Origin: a virus
Lineage: Duplodnaviria; Caudoviricetes
Direction: 5' to 3' (one strand)
DNA length: 64,000 nucleotides
Virus record (IMG/VR): IMGVR_UViG_3300027983_002388
Made by a program: the position numbers and the translations under genes. The notes under the pieces are model-generated. The model was given only the letters and a program-made list of their open reading frames with translations, was not told the origin of the DNA and did no database searches. This document shows positions 3,056 through 45,614 of this stretch, piece by piece; position 1 is the first letter of the stretch; the number at the start of each line of letters is the position of its first letter.

Positions 3056-4042
3056 ATGTCAGTACCCTTGACGATTCACTTGATAATCAAGAACAACGAG
3101 GAAACAGTTGAGCATACTCTGGAGTCTTTGCTGCCGCTGAACGCTCACATCTTGGTTGGCGATCTAGGGTGTAAAGATGAAACTGTAAGTAAATGCAAAC
3201 AGTACGGGGCAACCGTAGAACGTATTTCTTTGAATAATGATCTATCGCAGGCAAGAAATCATTTGTTGAAGTTTTCAGACTCCAAATGGAACTTACACAT
3301 CGAACCGTGGGAAACCATCTTGGGTGGACACGAAATAATCCAACAAGCGATAGTAGGGACTCAAACAGCCTACAAAATGAGCATTATTCAAGGAGATGTG
3401 ATAACCAAGCAAATCAGACTTTGGCACAAAAGCACAGAACTAAAGTTTAAGAATCCGGTATTTGAAACACTGAATTACAACGACGCAAAAGACCTTTCGG
3501 CCTACATTGCTGTGGGTCCAAACAATAATTCAATTCTGTATTTAGAGCTTGTCGAGAAGTGGCGAGATCGTTGCCCTTTGGCTAATGAACCCATTTATTA
3601 TACTGCCTGCTCTCATTTAAGTGGGAAGAATTGGGATGCGTTTTTGAATTGGGCAGGCTTGTATTTACATCAAGAAAAATCTGATTCAATGTCAGTTTAT
3701 ATGACGCACTATTATTGCTCGATGGTCAATTGTTACATTAAAAAAGATTACCAACACGCAATACAATCGCTTTTGCCTTGTCTGGCAAAAAAGCCGACGA
3801 TGGCAGAGTTTTGGTGCTTGTTGGGCGATGCCTACTATGCCATTAAGGACTATGATAAAGCAAAGGCTTTTTATGAAAACGCCATTATTTTAGGGAGCAA
3901 GCGACTTAAAGATGATGGATGGCCATTAGAAATATCCAAATACAAAGAATACCCTCAGAAGATGATTGAGGGCTGCGATAAAATCAAGCAGTCTTTGCGA
4001 TTCTATGGCTCAAGGGCTGCGAATCACAACAATCCCCATTGA
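3056..4042 (+). CDS. GT2-like glycosyltransferase with TPR repeats
   Basis: LIIKNNEETV...VGDLGCKDET...ARN; TPR-like AEFWCLLGDAYYAIKDYDKAKAFYENA. Confidence 0.65.
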   Translation: MSVPLTIHLIIKNNEETVEHTLESLLPLNAHILVGDLGCKDETVSKCKQYGATVERISLNNDLSQARNHLLKFSDSKWNLHIEPWETILGGHEIIQQAIVGTQTAYKMSIIQGDVITKQIRLWHKSTELKFKNPVFETLNYNDAKDLSAYIAVGPNNNSILYLELVEKWRDRCPLANEPIYYTACSHLSGKNWDAFLNWAGLYLHQEKSDSMSVYMTHYYCSMVNCYIKKDYQHAIQSLLPCLAKKPTMAEFWCLLGDAYYAIKDYDKAKAFYENAIILGSKRLKDDGWPLEISKYKEYPQKMIEGCDKIKQSLRFYGSRAANHNNPH

Positions 4043-7068: not shown

Positions 7069-7263
7069 ATGTGGAAGGGACTAGCGGAAGAAATATTCTT
7101 CTTCCAATATCACTTACACTTAGCTATGTCAGGGTCAATGAGTCTGCCGATCAATCTGCGAAAATGGATGATCGAACGCTTTATCGAGCAAAAAGAAAAA
7201 GAAAACGAGGCAATGGAAGCCTCACGCAGAAAGGCGCAGTCTCAATCAAAGTCAAGGCGATAA
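7069..7263 (+). CDS. gp51-like small ORF / frameshift (GT-type) extension of the gp26-like gene
   Basis: EEIFFFQYHLH...LPINLRKWMIERF; lies in the -1 frame with no evident SD. Confidence 0.6.
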   Translation: MWKGLAEEIFFFQYHLHLAMSGSMSLPINLRKWMIERFIEQKEKENEAMEASRRKAQSQSKSRR

Positions 7264-34047: not shown

Positions 34048-34129
34048 GGCTTTGTGGTGAAATTGGCAAACGCACAGCACTCAAAATGCTGCGTCGAAAG
34101 ACTTGTGGGTTCGAGTCCCACCAAAGCCA
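34048..34129 (+). tRNA. tRNA-Leu(CAA), canonical long variable arm
   Basis: GGCTTTG/CAAAGCC; CAGCA-CTCAAAA-TGCTG. Confidence 0.92.
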
Positions 34130-34247
34130 CTGTTTCGATTTCTGGATCTGGCTCTTACTCGTTGTGAGTAGAAACACCTTTTTTTGGTGGGGTTATAGAA
34201 GTCAAACCTCCAACGGTGATCTCGTAAAGATCACAGGAGAAAGTAAA

Positions 34248-35420
34248 GTGAAGAAAGTCCACATCAATGTCGGAACGATTGGTCACATTGACCACGGGAA
34301 GACGACTCTGACAGCAGCAATTCTCGCTGTTCAGTCCGAGAAGGGTTACGCAAAAAAGAAAGCATACGGCGACATCGCCAAGGGCGGCACCGTTCGTGAC
34401 GTTACCAAAACGGTAACGATCACCACGTCGCACGTTGAGTATGAGACGGATACCCGTCACTATGCTCACATTGACTGCCCCGGTCACGCCGACTATGTAA
34501 AAAATATGATTACCGGGGCTGCTCAAATGGACGGCGCTGTATTGCTCGTCAATGCAGCAGACGGTCCTATGCCTCAGACGAAAGAGCATATTCTGCTCGC
34601 TCGTCAGGTGGGCGTGCCGGATATTGTAGTATTCCTCAATAAGTGCGATCTTGTCAAAGACGAAGAATTGCTGGAACTGGTCGAGATGGAAACAAGAGAC
34701 TTGCTGACGAAGTATGGCTTCGACGGCGAGAAGACTCCGTTTATCCGTGGAGCAGCAAAACCTGCCTTGGATAATCCTGCTGATCCCGCAGCAAGCAAGT
34801 GTATTGTAGAATTGTTGGCGGCTCTGGATTCTTATATTCCTGACCCCAGCCGTTCTATCGACCGTCCCTTCTTGATGCCCGTCGAAGGTGTTCACAATAT
34901 CGAAGGTCGTGGCTGCGTAGTCACGGGCAAGATCGAGCAAGGAACCATCACGGTCGGAACCAAAGTTGAAATCCTTGGGTTGACTGATATTCTGGAGTCA
35001 GTTGTCACCAGCGTCGAGGCTTTCAATAAGCAACTGGAATATGGAGAAGCTGGACAGAATGTCGGTTTGCTGCTGAGAGGCATCAAGGCCGATCAAGTTC
35101 AGCGTGGACAGGTTGTGGCACAACCACGAAGCATCAAGCCTCACACCAAGTTCAAGAGCGAAATTTACGTCTTGGGCAAGGATGAGGGCGGGCGTCACAC
35201 CCCGATCTTCAATGGTTACAAGCCACAGTTCTTCTTCAGAACTACCAACGTCACCGGCCTTGTCCAAATGCCGGAAGGAATTGAGTTGGTCATGCCGGGC
35301 GAGAACACTTGCCTGTTTATCACCCTGGATAAGCCGATTGCTATCGAAAAAGGTAGTCACTTCGCCATTCGTGAGGGTGGTATGACAGTCGGTTCTGGCG
35401 TCGTGACGGAATTGCTGTAA
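34248..35420 (+). CDS. tuf: Elongation factor Tu (Planctomycetota-type switch I)
   Basis: [20 protein letters not shown]; GTG start with GGAGA SD. Confidence 0.97.
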
Positions 35421-39917: not shown

Positions 39918-40370
39918 GTGAGTATGAAAATTGCGTGGACGATTGCCGGAATTGTCGGAATTTCCGCTCTGTGTGTGGGATCAATGACGTGGCACGCCTG
40001 GAGTGTCCAGAAGGAAAACCAACGACTCTCGCTGGTGAATTACATCTATGTTGCGGAGCATCGTATTCTCAAGGATGAAATCTCTGAACTTGCATCTAAG
40101 CCAACATACGATCAGGGATATAAAGACGCTCTGATCCGCATCGGCGGACCACAAGTCCCTGGTGCATACCAAGATGGCTGGGACGACGCTCAGAAGCTCT
40201 GTGGTGCGGAAAACAATTACGCAGACGGGTATCACGCTGCAATCCAACAGTTTGGATATACTAAGACTACAACAATGGCTCGTTGGTTGGTTCCCGAACC
40301 AAAAGACAAGGCTATTGCTGCGGATAAGTCCAACAAGGAAGGCATCACGCCTGCTAAATTGGAAAAGTAA
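39918..40370 (+). CDS. Membrane-anchored protein
   Basis: Signal-anchor helix; repeated YxxGY motifs. Confidence 0.55.
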   Translation: MSMKIAWTIAGIVGISALCVGSMTWHAWSVQKENQRLSLVNYIYVAEHRILKDEISELASKPTYDQGYKDALIRIGGPQVPGAYQDGWDDAQKLCGAENNYADGYHAAIQQFGYTKTTTMARWLVPEPKDKAIAADKSNKEGITPAKLEK

Positions 40371-40450
40371 TCCAAACCGCTATAGAAAGCATTGGCTACA
40401 GTAAATCGGGTGATTTAGGGAAAGGTACGTCCTTTCCTTTGGGGAAACAA

Positions 40451-40555
40451 AGACAGCCAGGATGTTGGCCTAGAAGTAGCCAACATTCAAAGAGTAGGGT
40501 TACACAGGGACTTCCTGTTAACGGACCCTTTTGGTGTAATAACACACTGGCCGAG
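40451..40555 (+). ncRNA. 23S rRNA GTPase-associated-centre (H42 distal/H43/H44) mimic with a 38-nt hairpin insertion
   Basis: AGACAGCCAGGATGTTGGCCTAGAAGTAGCCAACATTCAAAGAGT-[38 nt]-GTGTAATAACACACTGGCCGAG; compensatory changes. Confidence 0.85.
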
Positions 40556-40593
40556 CCACCCAACACTCGACACTGGCAATGCTGGTGCCTGGA

Positions 40594-40636
40594 GAGCATG
40601 TCGCCGACGAAGGCTTAGGCGACATGCTCATTTTTT
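40594..40636 (+). terminator. Intrinsic terminator after the rRNA-mimic RNA
   Basis: GAGCATGTCGCC/GGCGACATGCTC + T6. Confidence 0.85.
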
Positions 40637-40651
40637 GAAAAGAAAGATGAA

Positions 40652-40834
40652 ATGATAGCTTGTATTTGCGGTGGATTTTTGGAACTAGGTTACATCCTAG
40701 TGATGGCAATTATTTCTATTTCGGGAGCAATATTTGGCACCAACTGGTACAATACAGCACGATATAAAAAGTACATAAAATACAAAGACAAACACAAAGG
40801 CTGTGGTTGCGACTGTCACAAAGAAGACGAGTAG
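40652..40834 (+). CDS. Small membrane protein with Cys/His tail
   Basis: TM helix; HKGCGCDCH. Confidence 0.55.
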   Translation: MIACICGGFLELGYILVMAIISISGAIFGTNWYNTARYKKYIKYKDKHKGCGCDCHKEDE

Positions 40835-40837
40835 TGC

Positions 40838-40919
40838 GGCCCTGTGGTGGAATTGGAATACACATGGGACTTAAAATCCCACGCCGAAAGGATTGCGGGT
40901 TCGAGTCCCGCCAGGGCTA
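40838..40919 (+). tRNA. tRNA-Leu(TAA), canonical long variable arm
   Basis: GGCCCTG/CAGGGCT; TGGGA-CTTAAAA-TCCCA. Confidence 0.92.
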
Positions 40920-41556: not shown

Positions 41557-41652
41557 AAATTAAGCCTATTGATTCAACAAAAAAGAAGAAAAGCCTTTGG
41601 GCGTCGAAGTCATCTACTTGAAAAGAGAATCAGACGGCAACTGGAAAACCTT

Positions 41653-42537
41653 ATGAAAGTTTTTTACAACGAAAATCAGTCAGTGGAAAATAATCCAAGC
41701 ATTTCGCCAAGTGCCAAGAAGCCCACGGCAGTATTGAAGTCGTGGCAGGAAATTGTGCCTGTCGAGATCATGCCAGTTGTTCCTGTAACCGTTGCAGACT
41801 TGGAGTTGGTGCATGACAGAGAATACGTTAATGATGTTATCTCTTGTCGCATAGAAAATGGGTTCGGCAACAAACTGAAAACCATTGCTGATTCTTTGCT
41901 GTGGACAAATGGTAGTTTTCTTAGTGCTGCTAAATACGCAGTTGAAAACAAAACAAATACAGTTAGCCCAACAAGTGGTTTTCACCATGCAGGATATTAT
42001 GCTGGTAGTGGATTTTGTACATTTAATGGACTTATGTTGGCGGCAATAACGCTCAAAAATGCCATGCTGGTCAATCGAGTTGCCATTGCTGATTTAGATA
42101 TGCACTATGGCAATGGCACGGATTGCATCCTTGAGCAGTTATCCATTCGAGGAATGAAAGATTTCATCTCTCATTATACTTTTGGCGGGCATTTAGACAC
42201 TGTTGATCGTGGAGCTAAAAGTCGGCTTGCTTTTGGCCAAGCATACACAAAACTTTTGCCCGACATTATCACTAGGTTGCTTGATGATGCAGATGTTCTG
42301 TTCTATCAGGCTGGGGCTGACCCTCATGTGAATGATCCATATGGCGGCGTTCTCACGACTGAAGAGTTAAAAGAAAGAGATCGCATTGTTTTTACAATTG
42401 CGAAAGAAAGAGGAGTGCCGGTTGTTTGGAATTTAGCAGGCGGGTATCAAACCGACTTTTCTAAAGTCTTGGAAATCCACAACAACACAGCTTTGTTGCA
42501 CGTTGAGATATTCGAGAATGCACCGGAAACCTTGTGA
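41653..42537 (+). CDS. Zn-dependent histone deacetylase/AcuC-family protein
   Basis: GFHHA, GFCTFN, DLDMHYGNGT, GADPH.NDP.G, GGY. Confidence 0.9.
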   Translation: MKVFYNENQSVENNPSISPSAKKPTAVLKSWQEIVPVEIMPVVPVTVADLELVHDREYVNDVISCRIENGFGNKLKTIADSLLWTNGSFLSAAKYAVENKTNTVSPTSGFHHAGYYAGSGFCTFNGLMLAAITLKNAMLVNRVAIADLDMHYGNGTDCILEQLSIRGMKDFISHYTFGGHLDTVDRGAKSRLAFGQAYTKLLPDIITRLLDDADVLFYQAGADPHVNDPYGGVLTTEELKERDRIVFTIAKERGVPVVWNLAGGYQTDFSKVLEIHNNTALLHVEIFENAPETL

Positions 42538-44250: not shown

Positions 44251-44472
44251 ATGGCAGTTGAAACAGATATTACAAAGCGTTGGGAACAAGGGATAGATCA
44301 CCATCCCAAAAGCATCGCTTTGTTCAAAAAACTAGCAGAAATCGACTTCAAATTCGGTGGAGATTTCTTCGACTGGTCATCAGGTGGCGATGGAGACAAT
44401 GGCGAACATTTAATGTACGAAATGGACATTATGTTCGAGAAAGAAGATGCTGAAATAGGAGCTTCATCATGA
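44251..44472 (+). CDS. Hypothetical protein (GGDGDNGE motif)
   Basis: ORF with SD. Confidence 0.55.
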   Translation: MAVETDITKRWEQGIDHHPKSIALFKKLAEIDFKFGGDFFDWSSGGDGDNGEHLMYEMDIMFEKEDAEIGASS

Positions 44473-45614
44473 AGCGACACACAACCGATCTTAGGCATGA
44501 TTGGAAAAAGACCATTGAAGGTCAGGGAATGTTATTTCATACATTTGATGGCGATATTTATTGGGACGAGTCAGCATACTACGAGTTAAACAGTCCTGAA
44601 GTAGACACCATAGAGGCGGCTACTTACGAACTGAATGATCGTTGTCTTGAAGCTGTTCAACACGTCATCGACAATGATCTGTTAGATGCTTTCTTGATCC
44701 CGCCCGAATTCCATCAGTTTATCCAAGACAGTTGGGAGAGAGACGAACACACCATTTATGGTCGGTTTGACTTTTCCTATGACGGAAAAACCCAACCAAA
44801 GATGTTGGAGTTCAATGCCGACACGCCTACCGGCCTGATAGAAGCTGCTGTTACCCAATGGTATTGGGCAAAAGACAAGTTTCCAAATCGGAACCAATTC
44901 AACTCAATACACGAGCGGCTAATTAAGGTTTGGAAAGAACTGAAGTCCGTGACGCCAGGAGTATTGTATTTTACGGCACTCGCTGGCAATCTCGAAGATT
45001 ACATGAACGTCAATTATCTTCGAGACACTGCCATCCAAGCCGGGTGGGATACTGAATATATTGACATTGAAAACATCGGATGGAACGAAGGTCGCCGTAC
45101 ATTCACCGACCTGAACGAAAATCCAATACAGACATGCTTCAAGCTGTATCCTTGGGAATGGATGCAGACCGACGAGTTTGGCAGAAAACTATTCCTCAAG
45201 ACCACCAAATGGCTTGAGGCTCCGTGGAAGGCAATCCTTAGCAACAAGGCCATTCTGCCTATATTGTGGGAGTTGTTTCCCGATCATCCAAACTTATTAG
45301 AAGCATCGTTTCAACCAATTCGCACAAAACCTTACGTTCAGAAGCCAATTCTGAGTCGTGAGGGAGCTAATGTGCAAATATTTGAGCATGGCGAATTGCT
45401 GCTTAAAACTGATGGTCCTTACGATGGACCATGTGTATATCAACAACTATGGGAACTTCCCAACTTTGATGGCAATCACGCCTGCATTGGTAGTTGGTTG
45501 GTCAACGGCTGGGCTTGTGGAATAGGCATTCGAGAAGACAAAACCATTGTAACGGGGAACCTGAGTCGGTTCGTACCGCACATTTTCGGTGTTCGACCAA
45601 AATACGGGAGTTAA
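44469..45614 (+). CDS. Glutathionylspermidine-synthase-like ATP-grasp ligase (YgiC/YjfC family)
   Basis: YWDESAYY, GRFDF, LEFNADTPT, FKLYPWEW, KPILSREG, GSW. Confidence 0.92.
   Translation: MKRHTTDLRHDWKKTIEGQGMLFHTFDGDIYWDESAYYELNSPEVDTIEAATYELNDRCLEAVQHVIDNDLLDAFLIPPEFHQFIQDSWERDEHTIYGRFDFSYDGKTQPKMLEFNADTPTGLIEAAVTQWYWAKDKFPNRNQFNSIHERLIKVWKELKSVTPGVLYFTALAGNLEDYMNVNYLRDTAIQAGWDTEYIDIENIGWNEGRRTFTDLNENPIQTCFKLYPWEWMQTDEFGRKLFLKTTKWLEAPWKAILSNKAILPILWELFPDHPNLLEASFQPIRTKPYVQKPILSREGANVQIFEHGELLLKTDGPYDGPCVYQQLWELPNFDGNHACIGSWLVNGWACGIGIREDKTIVTGNLSRFVPHIFGVRPKYGS

Follow-up and report, generated by a model that had tools for sequence, protein, structure and literature searches.

A free-standing mimic of the 23S rRNA GTPase-associated center within a family of phage RNAs

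A 64-kb stretch of phage DNA (IMG/VR record IMGVR_UViG_3300027983_002388, Caudoviricetes; the entire stretch is referred to as the window) carries on its plus strand a free-standing mimic of the GTPase-associated center (GAC) of 23S rRNA, i.e., of the domain composed of helices H42 (distal part), H43 and H44 that is found at positions 1051-1108 of the Escherichia coli molecule. An earlier note on the window had proposed this identity, which is now strongly supported by covariation across a family of homologues, by a base triple that is exchanged as a set and by compensated changes in the flanking hairpins and the terminator, all of which show that the element is under selection. Sequence, fold-preserving evolution, family membership and a location among phage tRNA genes are documented below for this RNA, which is the minimal and most rRNA-like member of a large phage RNA family. 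In the reading that we favor, with a probability of about 0.5, the RNA would present a free copy of the base of the ribosomal stalk and work as a trans-acting mimic, with host uL11 as its ligand and, in the window lineage, probably uL10-bL12 as well.

Identity and fold of the window element

In a relaxed Rfam search of positions 40300-40700 (401 nt), Infernal aligned nucleotides 40442-40561 (+) to positions 1078-1159 of the bacterial large-subunit (LSU) rRNA model RF02541, i.e., to the distal part of H42, H43 and H44, with a score of 32.9 bits and an E-value of 1.8e-8. This score does not reach the gathering score of 50 bits, and a 49-nt stretch inside H44 is skipped in the alignment. Besides LSU, the search (E up to 10) returned chance-level matches alone, and cmscan of the same region with the same limit gave no match to L10_leader (RF00557) or any other leader family. 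At gathering scores, Rfam finds eight tRNAs alone in the whole window, and no RNase P RNA; no rRNA is found elsewhere in the 64 kb, in agreement with the earlier claim that flanking rRNA is absent.

With the insert spliced out, the core of the element is identical to Salmonella LT2 23S rRNA (1051-1108) at 48 of 58 positions, which is exactly the approximate figure given in the earlier note, and to one metagenomic true 23S rRNA carrying U1072 at 52 of 58. The more detailed statements of that note also hold: the element has both A1067 and A1095, a U/U/A base triple in place of C1072/C1092/G1099, the pairs U1090-A1101 (40495-40544) and G1051-C1108 (40456-40551), a 38-nt hairpin insert in H44 with AGGGU/ACCCU and ACAGG/CCUGU stems, a 5' hairpin and a dedicated terminator (Table 1). 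The secondary structure is the same as that of the 23S GAC, and the window RNA keeps U1060-A1088, U1082-A1086, G1071, the 1072.(1092-1099) triple, as the naturally occurring U-U-A, and the H42 internal loop AGACA/CGAG, the 5' strand of which falls on the conserved AGACA in the LSU alignment. Unlike the 23S GAC, the window RNA is a free-standing phage gene outside any 23S sequence and below the Rfam gathering threshold, with its own flanking hairpins and terminator, the hairpin at 1090/1091, and C1065, A1078 (instead of U) and A1101. The predicted fold of a 241-nt stretch has an energy of -90.6 kcal/mol (z = -4.66 vs shuffled sequences). A sigma-70 scan of 40371-40405 found no promoter, and the terminator was missed by a terminator scan because its loop is 12 nt.

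The selection that acts on this structure is seen in two syntenic relatives, L340 (same record as L343) and L344, where the RNA is found behind the same 163-aa gene; the elongation factor EF-Tu of L340 is 97% identical to that of the window phage. The base triple differs as a set, i.e., U1072/U1092-A1099 in the window vs C1072/C1092-G1099 in both relatives. In the stem of the terminator, G-C is replaced by A-U at two pairs in the relatives, three pairs of the 5' hairpin are altered on both sides among the window, L343 and L344, the base stem of the insert has A-U for U-A in L343, the outer stem keeps 7/7 pairs with one G-U changed to A-U, and the 3' hairpin is kept with an apex 5 nt longer and one U-G changed to C-G. 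Over the 62-pair structure, 98.9% of the alignment cells of the three relatives are paired, with seven both-side changes, which is attained by 2 of 500 shuffles. Across the three relatives, H42 is unchanged on both strands, the AGACA/CGAG loop included, while the surrounding hairpins have drifted (identical segments, 40441-40469 and 40543-40558), and the loop region of the insert, G(A/C)CUUCCU, is conserved in both relatives. Together, these comparisons show that the whole ~230-nt unit, from the outer stem and 5' hairpin through the GAC domain to the 3' hairpin and terminator, is one conserved structured RNA. The RNA is absent from a more distant relative, L345, in which the neighboring gene is 51% identical.

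The U/U/A triple is not confined to phages. A metagenome scan for window-type H42/H43 gave 76 stretches, 75 of which are true 23S rRNAs with U1072, while the sole non-rRNA stretch belongs to an L008-type phage. Since true metagenomic 23S rRNAs with U1072 and U1092-A1099 exist, the triple is a natural variant.

Table 1. Parts of the window element (23S rRNA positions in E. coli numbering)
Feature	Position	Strand	Details
Outer closing stem, 5' arm UCGGGUG	40406-40412	+	7 bp with 40564-40570; in minimum-free-energy fold
5' hairpin	40418-40438	+	8-bp stem GGGAAAGG / CCUUUCCU, loop UACGU
H42-like 5' strand	40441-40460	+	Proximal GGG, internal-loop AAAGACA as in 23S, distal GCCAG
H43 equivalent (A1057-U1081)	40462-40486	+	A1067 = 40472, U1072 = 40477, A1078 = 40483
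Junction UCAAAGAGU (1082-1090)	40487-40495	+	U1082-A1086 pair, A1088, G1089, U1090
38-nt insert between U1090 and G1091	40496-40533	+	Hairpin 40496-40529 (loop GACUU), then linker UUUG
H44 equivalent GUGUAAUAACACAC	40534-40547	+	U1092-A1099 = 40535-40542; A1095 = 40538; ends at C1104
H42-like 3' strand	40548-40561	+	UGGC, internal-loop CGAG, proximal CCC; LSU-model alignment
Outer closing stem, 3' arm CACUCGA	40564-40570	+	Minimum-free-energy fold, relatives
3' hairpin	40571-40587	+	7-bp stem, loop AAU; fold
Intrinsic terminator	40594-40636	+	12-bp stem 40594-40605 / 40618-40629, 12-nt loop, T6 40631-40636

The phage RNA family and its genomic context

Among phage records, blastn located this H43 in two intergenic regions that carry no annotation, one in Yersinia phage fHe-Yen9-04 and the other in Ralstonia phage RSP15; in both, AAAGAGU and UUUGGUGUAAYAACACAC are separated by 170-240 nt, compared with 38 in the window. 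A blastn match in Paenibacillus phage Pd_22F was discarded, because it consists of a complete 23S plus 5S and so represents host DNA within that record. Three word scans of IMG/VR, anchored in H43, H44 and the junction, gave 10, 110 and 79 stretches, respectively. A covariance model (R1) built on an alignment (A1) of 24 short-insert members, with the window among the seeds, has 51 matches in 55 sources (the window and 54 loci) and 84 in a further 100 loci, so that the family comprises >130 covariance-model matches in IMG/VR loci. The window itself scores 93.8 bits as a seed sequence, and scores of 68.8 and 77.3 bits are obtained for L340 and L344, respectively, which are not among the seeds. 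Four isolated phages are members by the covariance model, i.e., fHe-Yen9-04, RSP15, XacN1 and UNO-G1W1, and a long form of the RNA matches all Prevotella Lak megaphage records in blastn, although R1 recognizes just the 5' part of the Lak long form, weakly (21.4 bits). The phages that carry the mimic have Yersinia, Ralstonia, Xanthomonas, Pseudomonas and Prevotella as hosts, and a planctomycete-type phage is also among them. In Rfam searches of other members, the long-form member L029 gave no match, and no LSU match was found in the whole loci of fHe-Yen9-04 and RSP15. One copy is found in the window and in each complete jumbo phage genome checked, while two GAC-mimic copies are located ~1-2 kb apart in L061 (1108-1243 and 2163-2372) and L027 (2690-2903 and 4750-5064).

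The proposed pairs are formed in 85% of the cells of A1 vs 65% after shuffling, and the covariation score is 0.49 vs 0.13, a value attained by none of 500 shuffles; controls in which the 3' partners were slid by 1-3 columns are all far lower. The compensatory changes that the earlier note had named as a check are thus present across the phage homologues. The H42-like closing stem (helix 2) is paired in 92% of cells, and five of its six pairs are changed on both sides; its sequence is not conserved, the distal 5 bp covary across the family, and the window version is GCCAG/CUGGC. Counts for H43 and the junction were made on 57 distinct 36-nt cores. In these, pair 1058-1080 is found as all four Watson-Crick pairs (U-A 19, A-U 19, G-C 15, C-G 3), pair 1064-1074 is C-G in 45, A-U in 8 and G-C in 3 cores, and pair 1063-1075 covaries too. 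The pair 1082-1086 in the junction, which is characteristic of how the GAC folds in three dimensions, is U-A in 48, A-U in 5 and C-G in 3 cores. U1060 is invariant (57/57), as is A1088, which was partly imposed by a search expression that fixed GAGU (1087-1090), and the U1060.U1078 mismatch is retained in 53 of 57. All nucleotides of the invariant H43 set of the family (A1057, G1062, U1066, A1077, C1079, U1081, A1084 and A1085, together with U1072) are found in the window. In 32 members from a search that left H44 unconstrained, G1093, U1094 and A1098 are found in 32/32 and A1095 in 30/32; the detection expression G[TC]G....A.C fixed 1091, 1093, 1098 and 1100, i.e., of the 32/32 positions only U1094 was freely observed.

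The insert is always located between U1090 and G1091, where its length varies from 35 to 354 nt across the family and where it opens with a covarying base stem (helix 6 in A1). The family frame of the insert, GAGU (1087-1090) on the one side and UUUGG-UGUAAYAACAC (H44) on the other, is also that of the window with its 38 nt. A hairpin that copies the sarcin-ricin loop (SRL), with the core AGUACGAGAGGA, covarying flanks and a variable tetraloop (GAGA, GGGA, AAGC or UAGA), is present in most inserts of ~310-354 nt, namely in L017 (310 nt) and in the majority of the Lak-type set (340-354 nt). In L237 (11703-12060), two modules occur in the 307-nt insert, one a tRNA-like T-arm (GGGUUCGAGUCCCGCC) and the other an SRL-like hairpin whose loop is UAGA; inserts are modular and can contain tRNA-like parts. 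A second permissive site is position 1078 of H43, where an extra 20-nt hairpin, CCGGA-GCAA-UCCGG, is found in L343 (~3080-3100; the element corresponds to L340 15824-15971) and where L025 likewise has an insert.

The H44 word of the family was also used to scan GTDB species representatives. It gave 94 stretches, most of which are chance matches to a 16-base word; 17 match the model, ~7 of them strongly, and these 17 are insert-bearing copies of the family type. None of the 94 stretches is a true 23S rRNA, and the insert-bearing architecture is confined to the phage family. The copy in fHe-Yen9-04 differs from enterobacterial 23S rRNA at core positions 1065, 1068, 1069, 1072, 1092, 1099 and 1101, so that the mimic is inherited among phages rather than copied from each host.

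A tRNA gene is found in the examined locus of 66 of 85 distinct elements. The nearest one is within 100 nt for 29 elements and within 500 nt for 50, on the same strand in 49 of these 50. In UNO-G1W1, the element exactly fills the gap between tRNA-Trp and tRNA-Arg; a 35-aa "hypothetical protein" is annotated antisense over the mimic (L347 774-881), a coding sequence that is probably spurious. In the window, two tRNA-Leu genes (at 40838 and 40953, +) lie 293 and 408 nt downstream of the element. Between the terminator and these genes is a 60-aa open reading frame (ORF; 40652-40834, +). The N-terminal half of its product is hydrophobic, and the tail is rich in Cys and Lys (CGCDCH). No Pfam family matches, but the protein sequence is conserved in L340 and L344, and the ORF is therefore probably a real gene for a small membrane protein. 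Clustering of the ORFs around the 85 elements revealed no common protein, only clade-specific genes, HNH endonucleases, TerD and RNase H.

The 98.7-kb IMG/VR record from which the window derives is ~20% complete by CheckV, which indicates a huge phage, and this phage was sampled in freshwater and estuaries. Its EF-Tu gene, full length with the GTP_EFTU, D2 and D3 domains, is located at 34086-35420 (+), 5 kb upstream of the element. The nearest named homologues of this EF-Tu are those of Planctomycetota (Gemmataceae, Aquisphaera; ~76% identity), and further relatives with 81-97% identity are found on contigs of 226 kb and 262 kb. Other genes downstream of the element encode a histone-deacetylase-family domain protein (41569-42537, +) and a glutathionylspermidine synthase (44469-45614, +; syntenic in L340).

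A few members have distinctive surroundings. In XacN1 (L346 28-678), an RNA-repair gene, annotated as 2'-5' RNA ligase, immediately precedes the mimic. The element most like that of the window is found in L008, a 259-kb record classified as a provirus by IMG/VR, and an identical element is present on a 424-kb metagenome contig (L319); L008 also encodes a tRNA with the anticodon CUA (7101-7174; tRNA-Pyl according to ARAGORN), which hints at reassignment or suppression of TAG. In RSP15 (L002 1984-2037), ~180 nt downstream of the GAC mimic and within one 630-nt intergenic gap, the transfer-messenger RNA (tmRNA) model matches with its two ends alone, i.e., the acceptor stem and the T-arm (20.6 bits, E 4.5e-5), which suggests a small tRNA-like or mini-tmRNA-like RNA.

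Proposed function and alternative explanations

From its parts, the locus would be predicted to yield a stable non-coding RNA of ~230 nt (~40406-40636) that is co-directional with the neighboring genes and has its own terminator, and the central domain (40441-40561) would take the tertiary fold of the 23S GAC. The isolated 58-nt GAC RNA is known to bind L11, and H42-H44 binds L10(L12)4. The phage RNA would therefore be expected to bind uL11 and probably uL10-bL12, because the fold-defining nucleotides and, in the window lineage, the H42 loop are kept. The latter, AGACA/CGAG, is retained by the window lineage and by L008/L319, unlike in nearly all other members, and its invariance makes uL10-(bL12)n a probable second ligand there. 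The occurrence of the family in phages of unrelated hosts fits a ligand that is universal among hosts. No uL11, uL10 or bL12 gene was found in three complete RNA-carrying jumbo genomes, apart from one sub-threshold L12-like match in G003, and no L10, L11 or L12 gene was found in the examined record of the window phage; with no such genes in the jumbo genomes, any such partner would be that of the host. During infection, the RNA would thus function in trans as a stalk-base mimic or sponge. More speculatively, as a downstream effect of such binding, ribosomal proteins may be titrated, RelA may be blinded, i.e., become insensitive, or the RNA may compete for stalk-base ligands.

Several observations weigh against this reading. 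The tip of the H43 loop appears less constrained in the family than in rRNA, since A and G are about equally frequent at position 1067 and positions 1068-1070 are variable; the presence of G1067 in about half of the family weakens readings that rest on the thiostrepton or EF-G contact at 1067. The A1078 of the window is the sole case among the 57 cores. H42 has been swapped for a generic stem in most members, which implies that binding of uL10 is not the family-wide function. The SRL copy in the long forms points towards factors or toxins rather than ribosomal proteins. Finally, sequence of the window phage is found in DNA runs only, with no RNA run among them. For the long form, wastewater and sludge metatranscriptome assemblies include contigs like L029 that cover the element (738-1141) and not its flanks, one of them with the sequencing adapter directly at 740; this pattern is suggestive of a discrete RNA, but the flanks are less conserved and DNA carry-over may contribute.

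An extension of the stalk-base reading, which we consider doubtful, is that the RNA recruits host uL11 and uL10-(bL12)n into an off-ribosome "stalk-base particle", a copy of the docking site of the translational GTPases, to which the long forms would contribute an SRL. If true, such a particle could capture or activate factors (possibly the phage EF-Tu), blind RelA or soak up immune effectors aimed at the ribosome, and it would represent a new layer of viral translation control through rRNA mimicry.

Among the alternatives, the one that survives best, although it is improbable, is that the RNA is a decoy substrate that absorbs attackers of the GAC, such as RNA ADP-ribosyltransferases, nucleases of defense systems or competitors, or thiopeptides, so that translation is kept running in infection, by analogy with phage tRNAs that replace or shield cleaved host tRNAs. 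A toxin with a target in this site exists, as the bacterial Tre23 ADP-ribosylates H44 at 1095-1098 (PMC8661411). No other loop of the family is as well conserved as that of H44, the SRL copied in the long forms is the other classical toxin target, and members reside among tRNA genes. However, no known anti-phage system has been shown to target the GAC, the toxin-target tetraloop varies among the SRL copies and no NADAR gene is present in the examined part of the window phage genome. Moreover, conservation over phages of many phyla favors a universal partner instead of a lineage-specific attacker.

An explanation that we rank below the decoy, and regard as unlikely, is that the RNA, alone or with stalk proteins, is a platform or trap for translation factors, binding EF-G, EF-Tu, IF2, RF3 or RelA away from the ribosome to sequester or stimulate them. 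GAC and SRL together constitute the factor-binding site and both are found in the long members, the window copy keeps A1067 and A1095, and the phage has an EF-Tu gene of its own nearby; furthermore, Munishkin and Wool reportedly found in 1997 that oligonucleotide mimics of the GAC and of the SRL bind EF-G in vitro. Against this stand the G at 1067 in about half of the members, the lack of an SRL in the window member and the absence of EF-Tu from the four other RNA-carrying genomes examined, and sequestered elongation factors would hurt translation of the phage as well.

Less probable still is a role of the GAC fold as a mere scaffold, i.e., a compact, nuclease-resistant clamp for a variable functional insert, of which the window form with its 34-nt hairpin would be a reduced version. 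The range of insert lengths at one fixed site, the conserved modules within the larger inserts and the conserved loop region of the window insert in both relatives are what a scaffold would lead one to expect, yet a clamp has no need for G1093, U1094, A1095, A1098, G1071 and U1066 to be identical to rRNA or for an invariant H42 internal loop, and minimal members retain the GAC with hardly any insert.

It is very unlikely that the element is a cis-acting attenuator in which a stalk protein bound to the GAC tunes termination at 40594-40636 and hence expression of the 60-aa ORF and the two tRNA-Leu genes. The order of the parts, i.e., structured domain, hairpin, terminator, ORF (40652) and tRNAs (40838 and 40953), is compatible with such a device, and known ribosomal-protein leaders act likewise, but most members sit flush between tRNAs without a terminator (as in the gap of UNO-G1W1), no convincing antiterminator pairing was found and, as described above, no leader model matched. 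An inert fragment of captured host rRNA, or contamination of the assembly with host DNA, could be suspected from the high 23S identity in the 5' half (52/58 to one metagenomic 23S), but it has a negligible probability, because compensatory changes in >130 phage loci and in the syntenic relatives exclude inert capture, no other rRNA is found in the 64 kb, the family H44 word with its insert is in no 23S rRNA of the GTDB species representatives and seven core positions set the fHe-Yen9-04 copy apart from enterobacterial 23S.

Relation to known systems and significance

No prior description of a phage GAC-mimic RNA was found in a search of the full-text literature, Rfam 15 has no family for it, and we know of no virus or cell in which a functional rRNA domain has been shown to be encoded as a separate copy that acts in trans. 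We rate the GAC-mimic RNA as a new kind of element. The nearest precedents each share part of its character. The rplJ (L10) leader (RF00557) is also an extra-ribosomal RNA that imitates the binding site of a stalk protein. Ribosomal-protein leaders are, however, loose cis-acting mimics in front of ribosomal-protein genes, while the window RNA is a near-exact copy in a separate transcript unit with no nearby ribosomal-protein gene, being followed by the 60-aa ORF and tRNA-Leu. With other RNAs of phage tRNA arrays (tRNAs, tmRNA-like and tRNA-like RNAs) it shares context, strand and presumably processing, but it is not tRNA-shaped, and the window copy ends in a terminator instead of at tRNA-processing sites. 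The GAC and SRL oligonucleotides of the "ribosome-in-pieces" approach, reported in the same 1997 work of Munishkin and Wool, are likewise isolated copies of these sites, which the long members join in one molecule; unlike the oligonucleotides, the phage RNAs are natural, evolved and phage-encoded, and the window member has the GAC only. At the level of proteins, phage-encoded ribosomal proteins such as bL12 are known (PMC6375957).

The window element and its relatives represent copies of an rRNA domain under clear selection for the three-dimensional fold of the site at which factors dock and stalk proteins bind, and they recur in well over a hundred large phages of unrelated bacteria; four of these phages are in culture. 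If the mimic binds stalk proteins, factors or ribosome-directed toxins, it would represent a new route by which phages manipulate or protect translation; the family would also account for part of the unannotated space within phage tRNA arrays and would supply natural, evolved minimal models of the GTPase center. The window RNA, as the smallest and most rRNA-like member, is the most convenient for binding and structural work.

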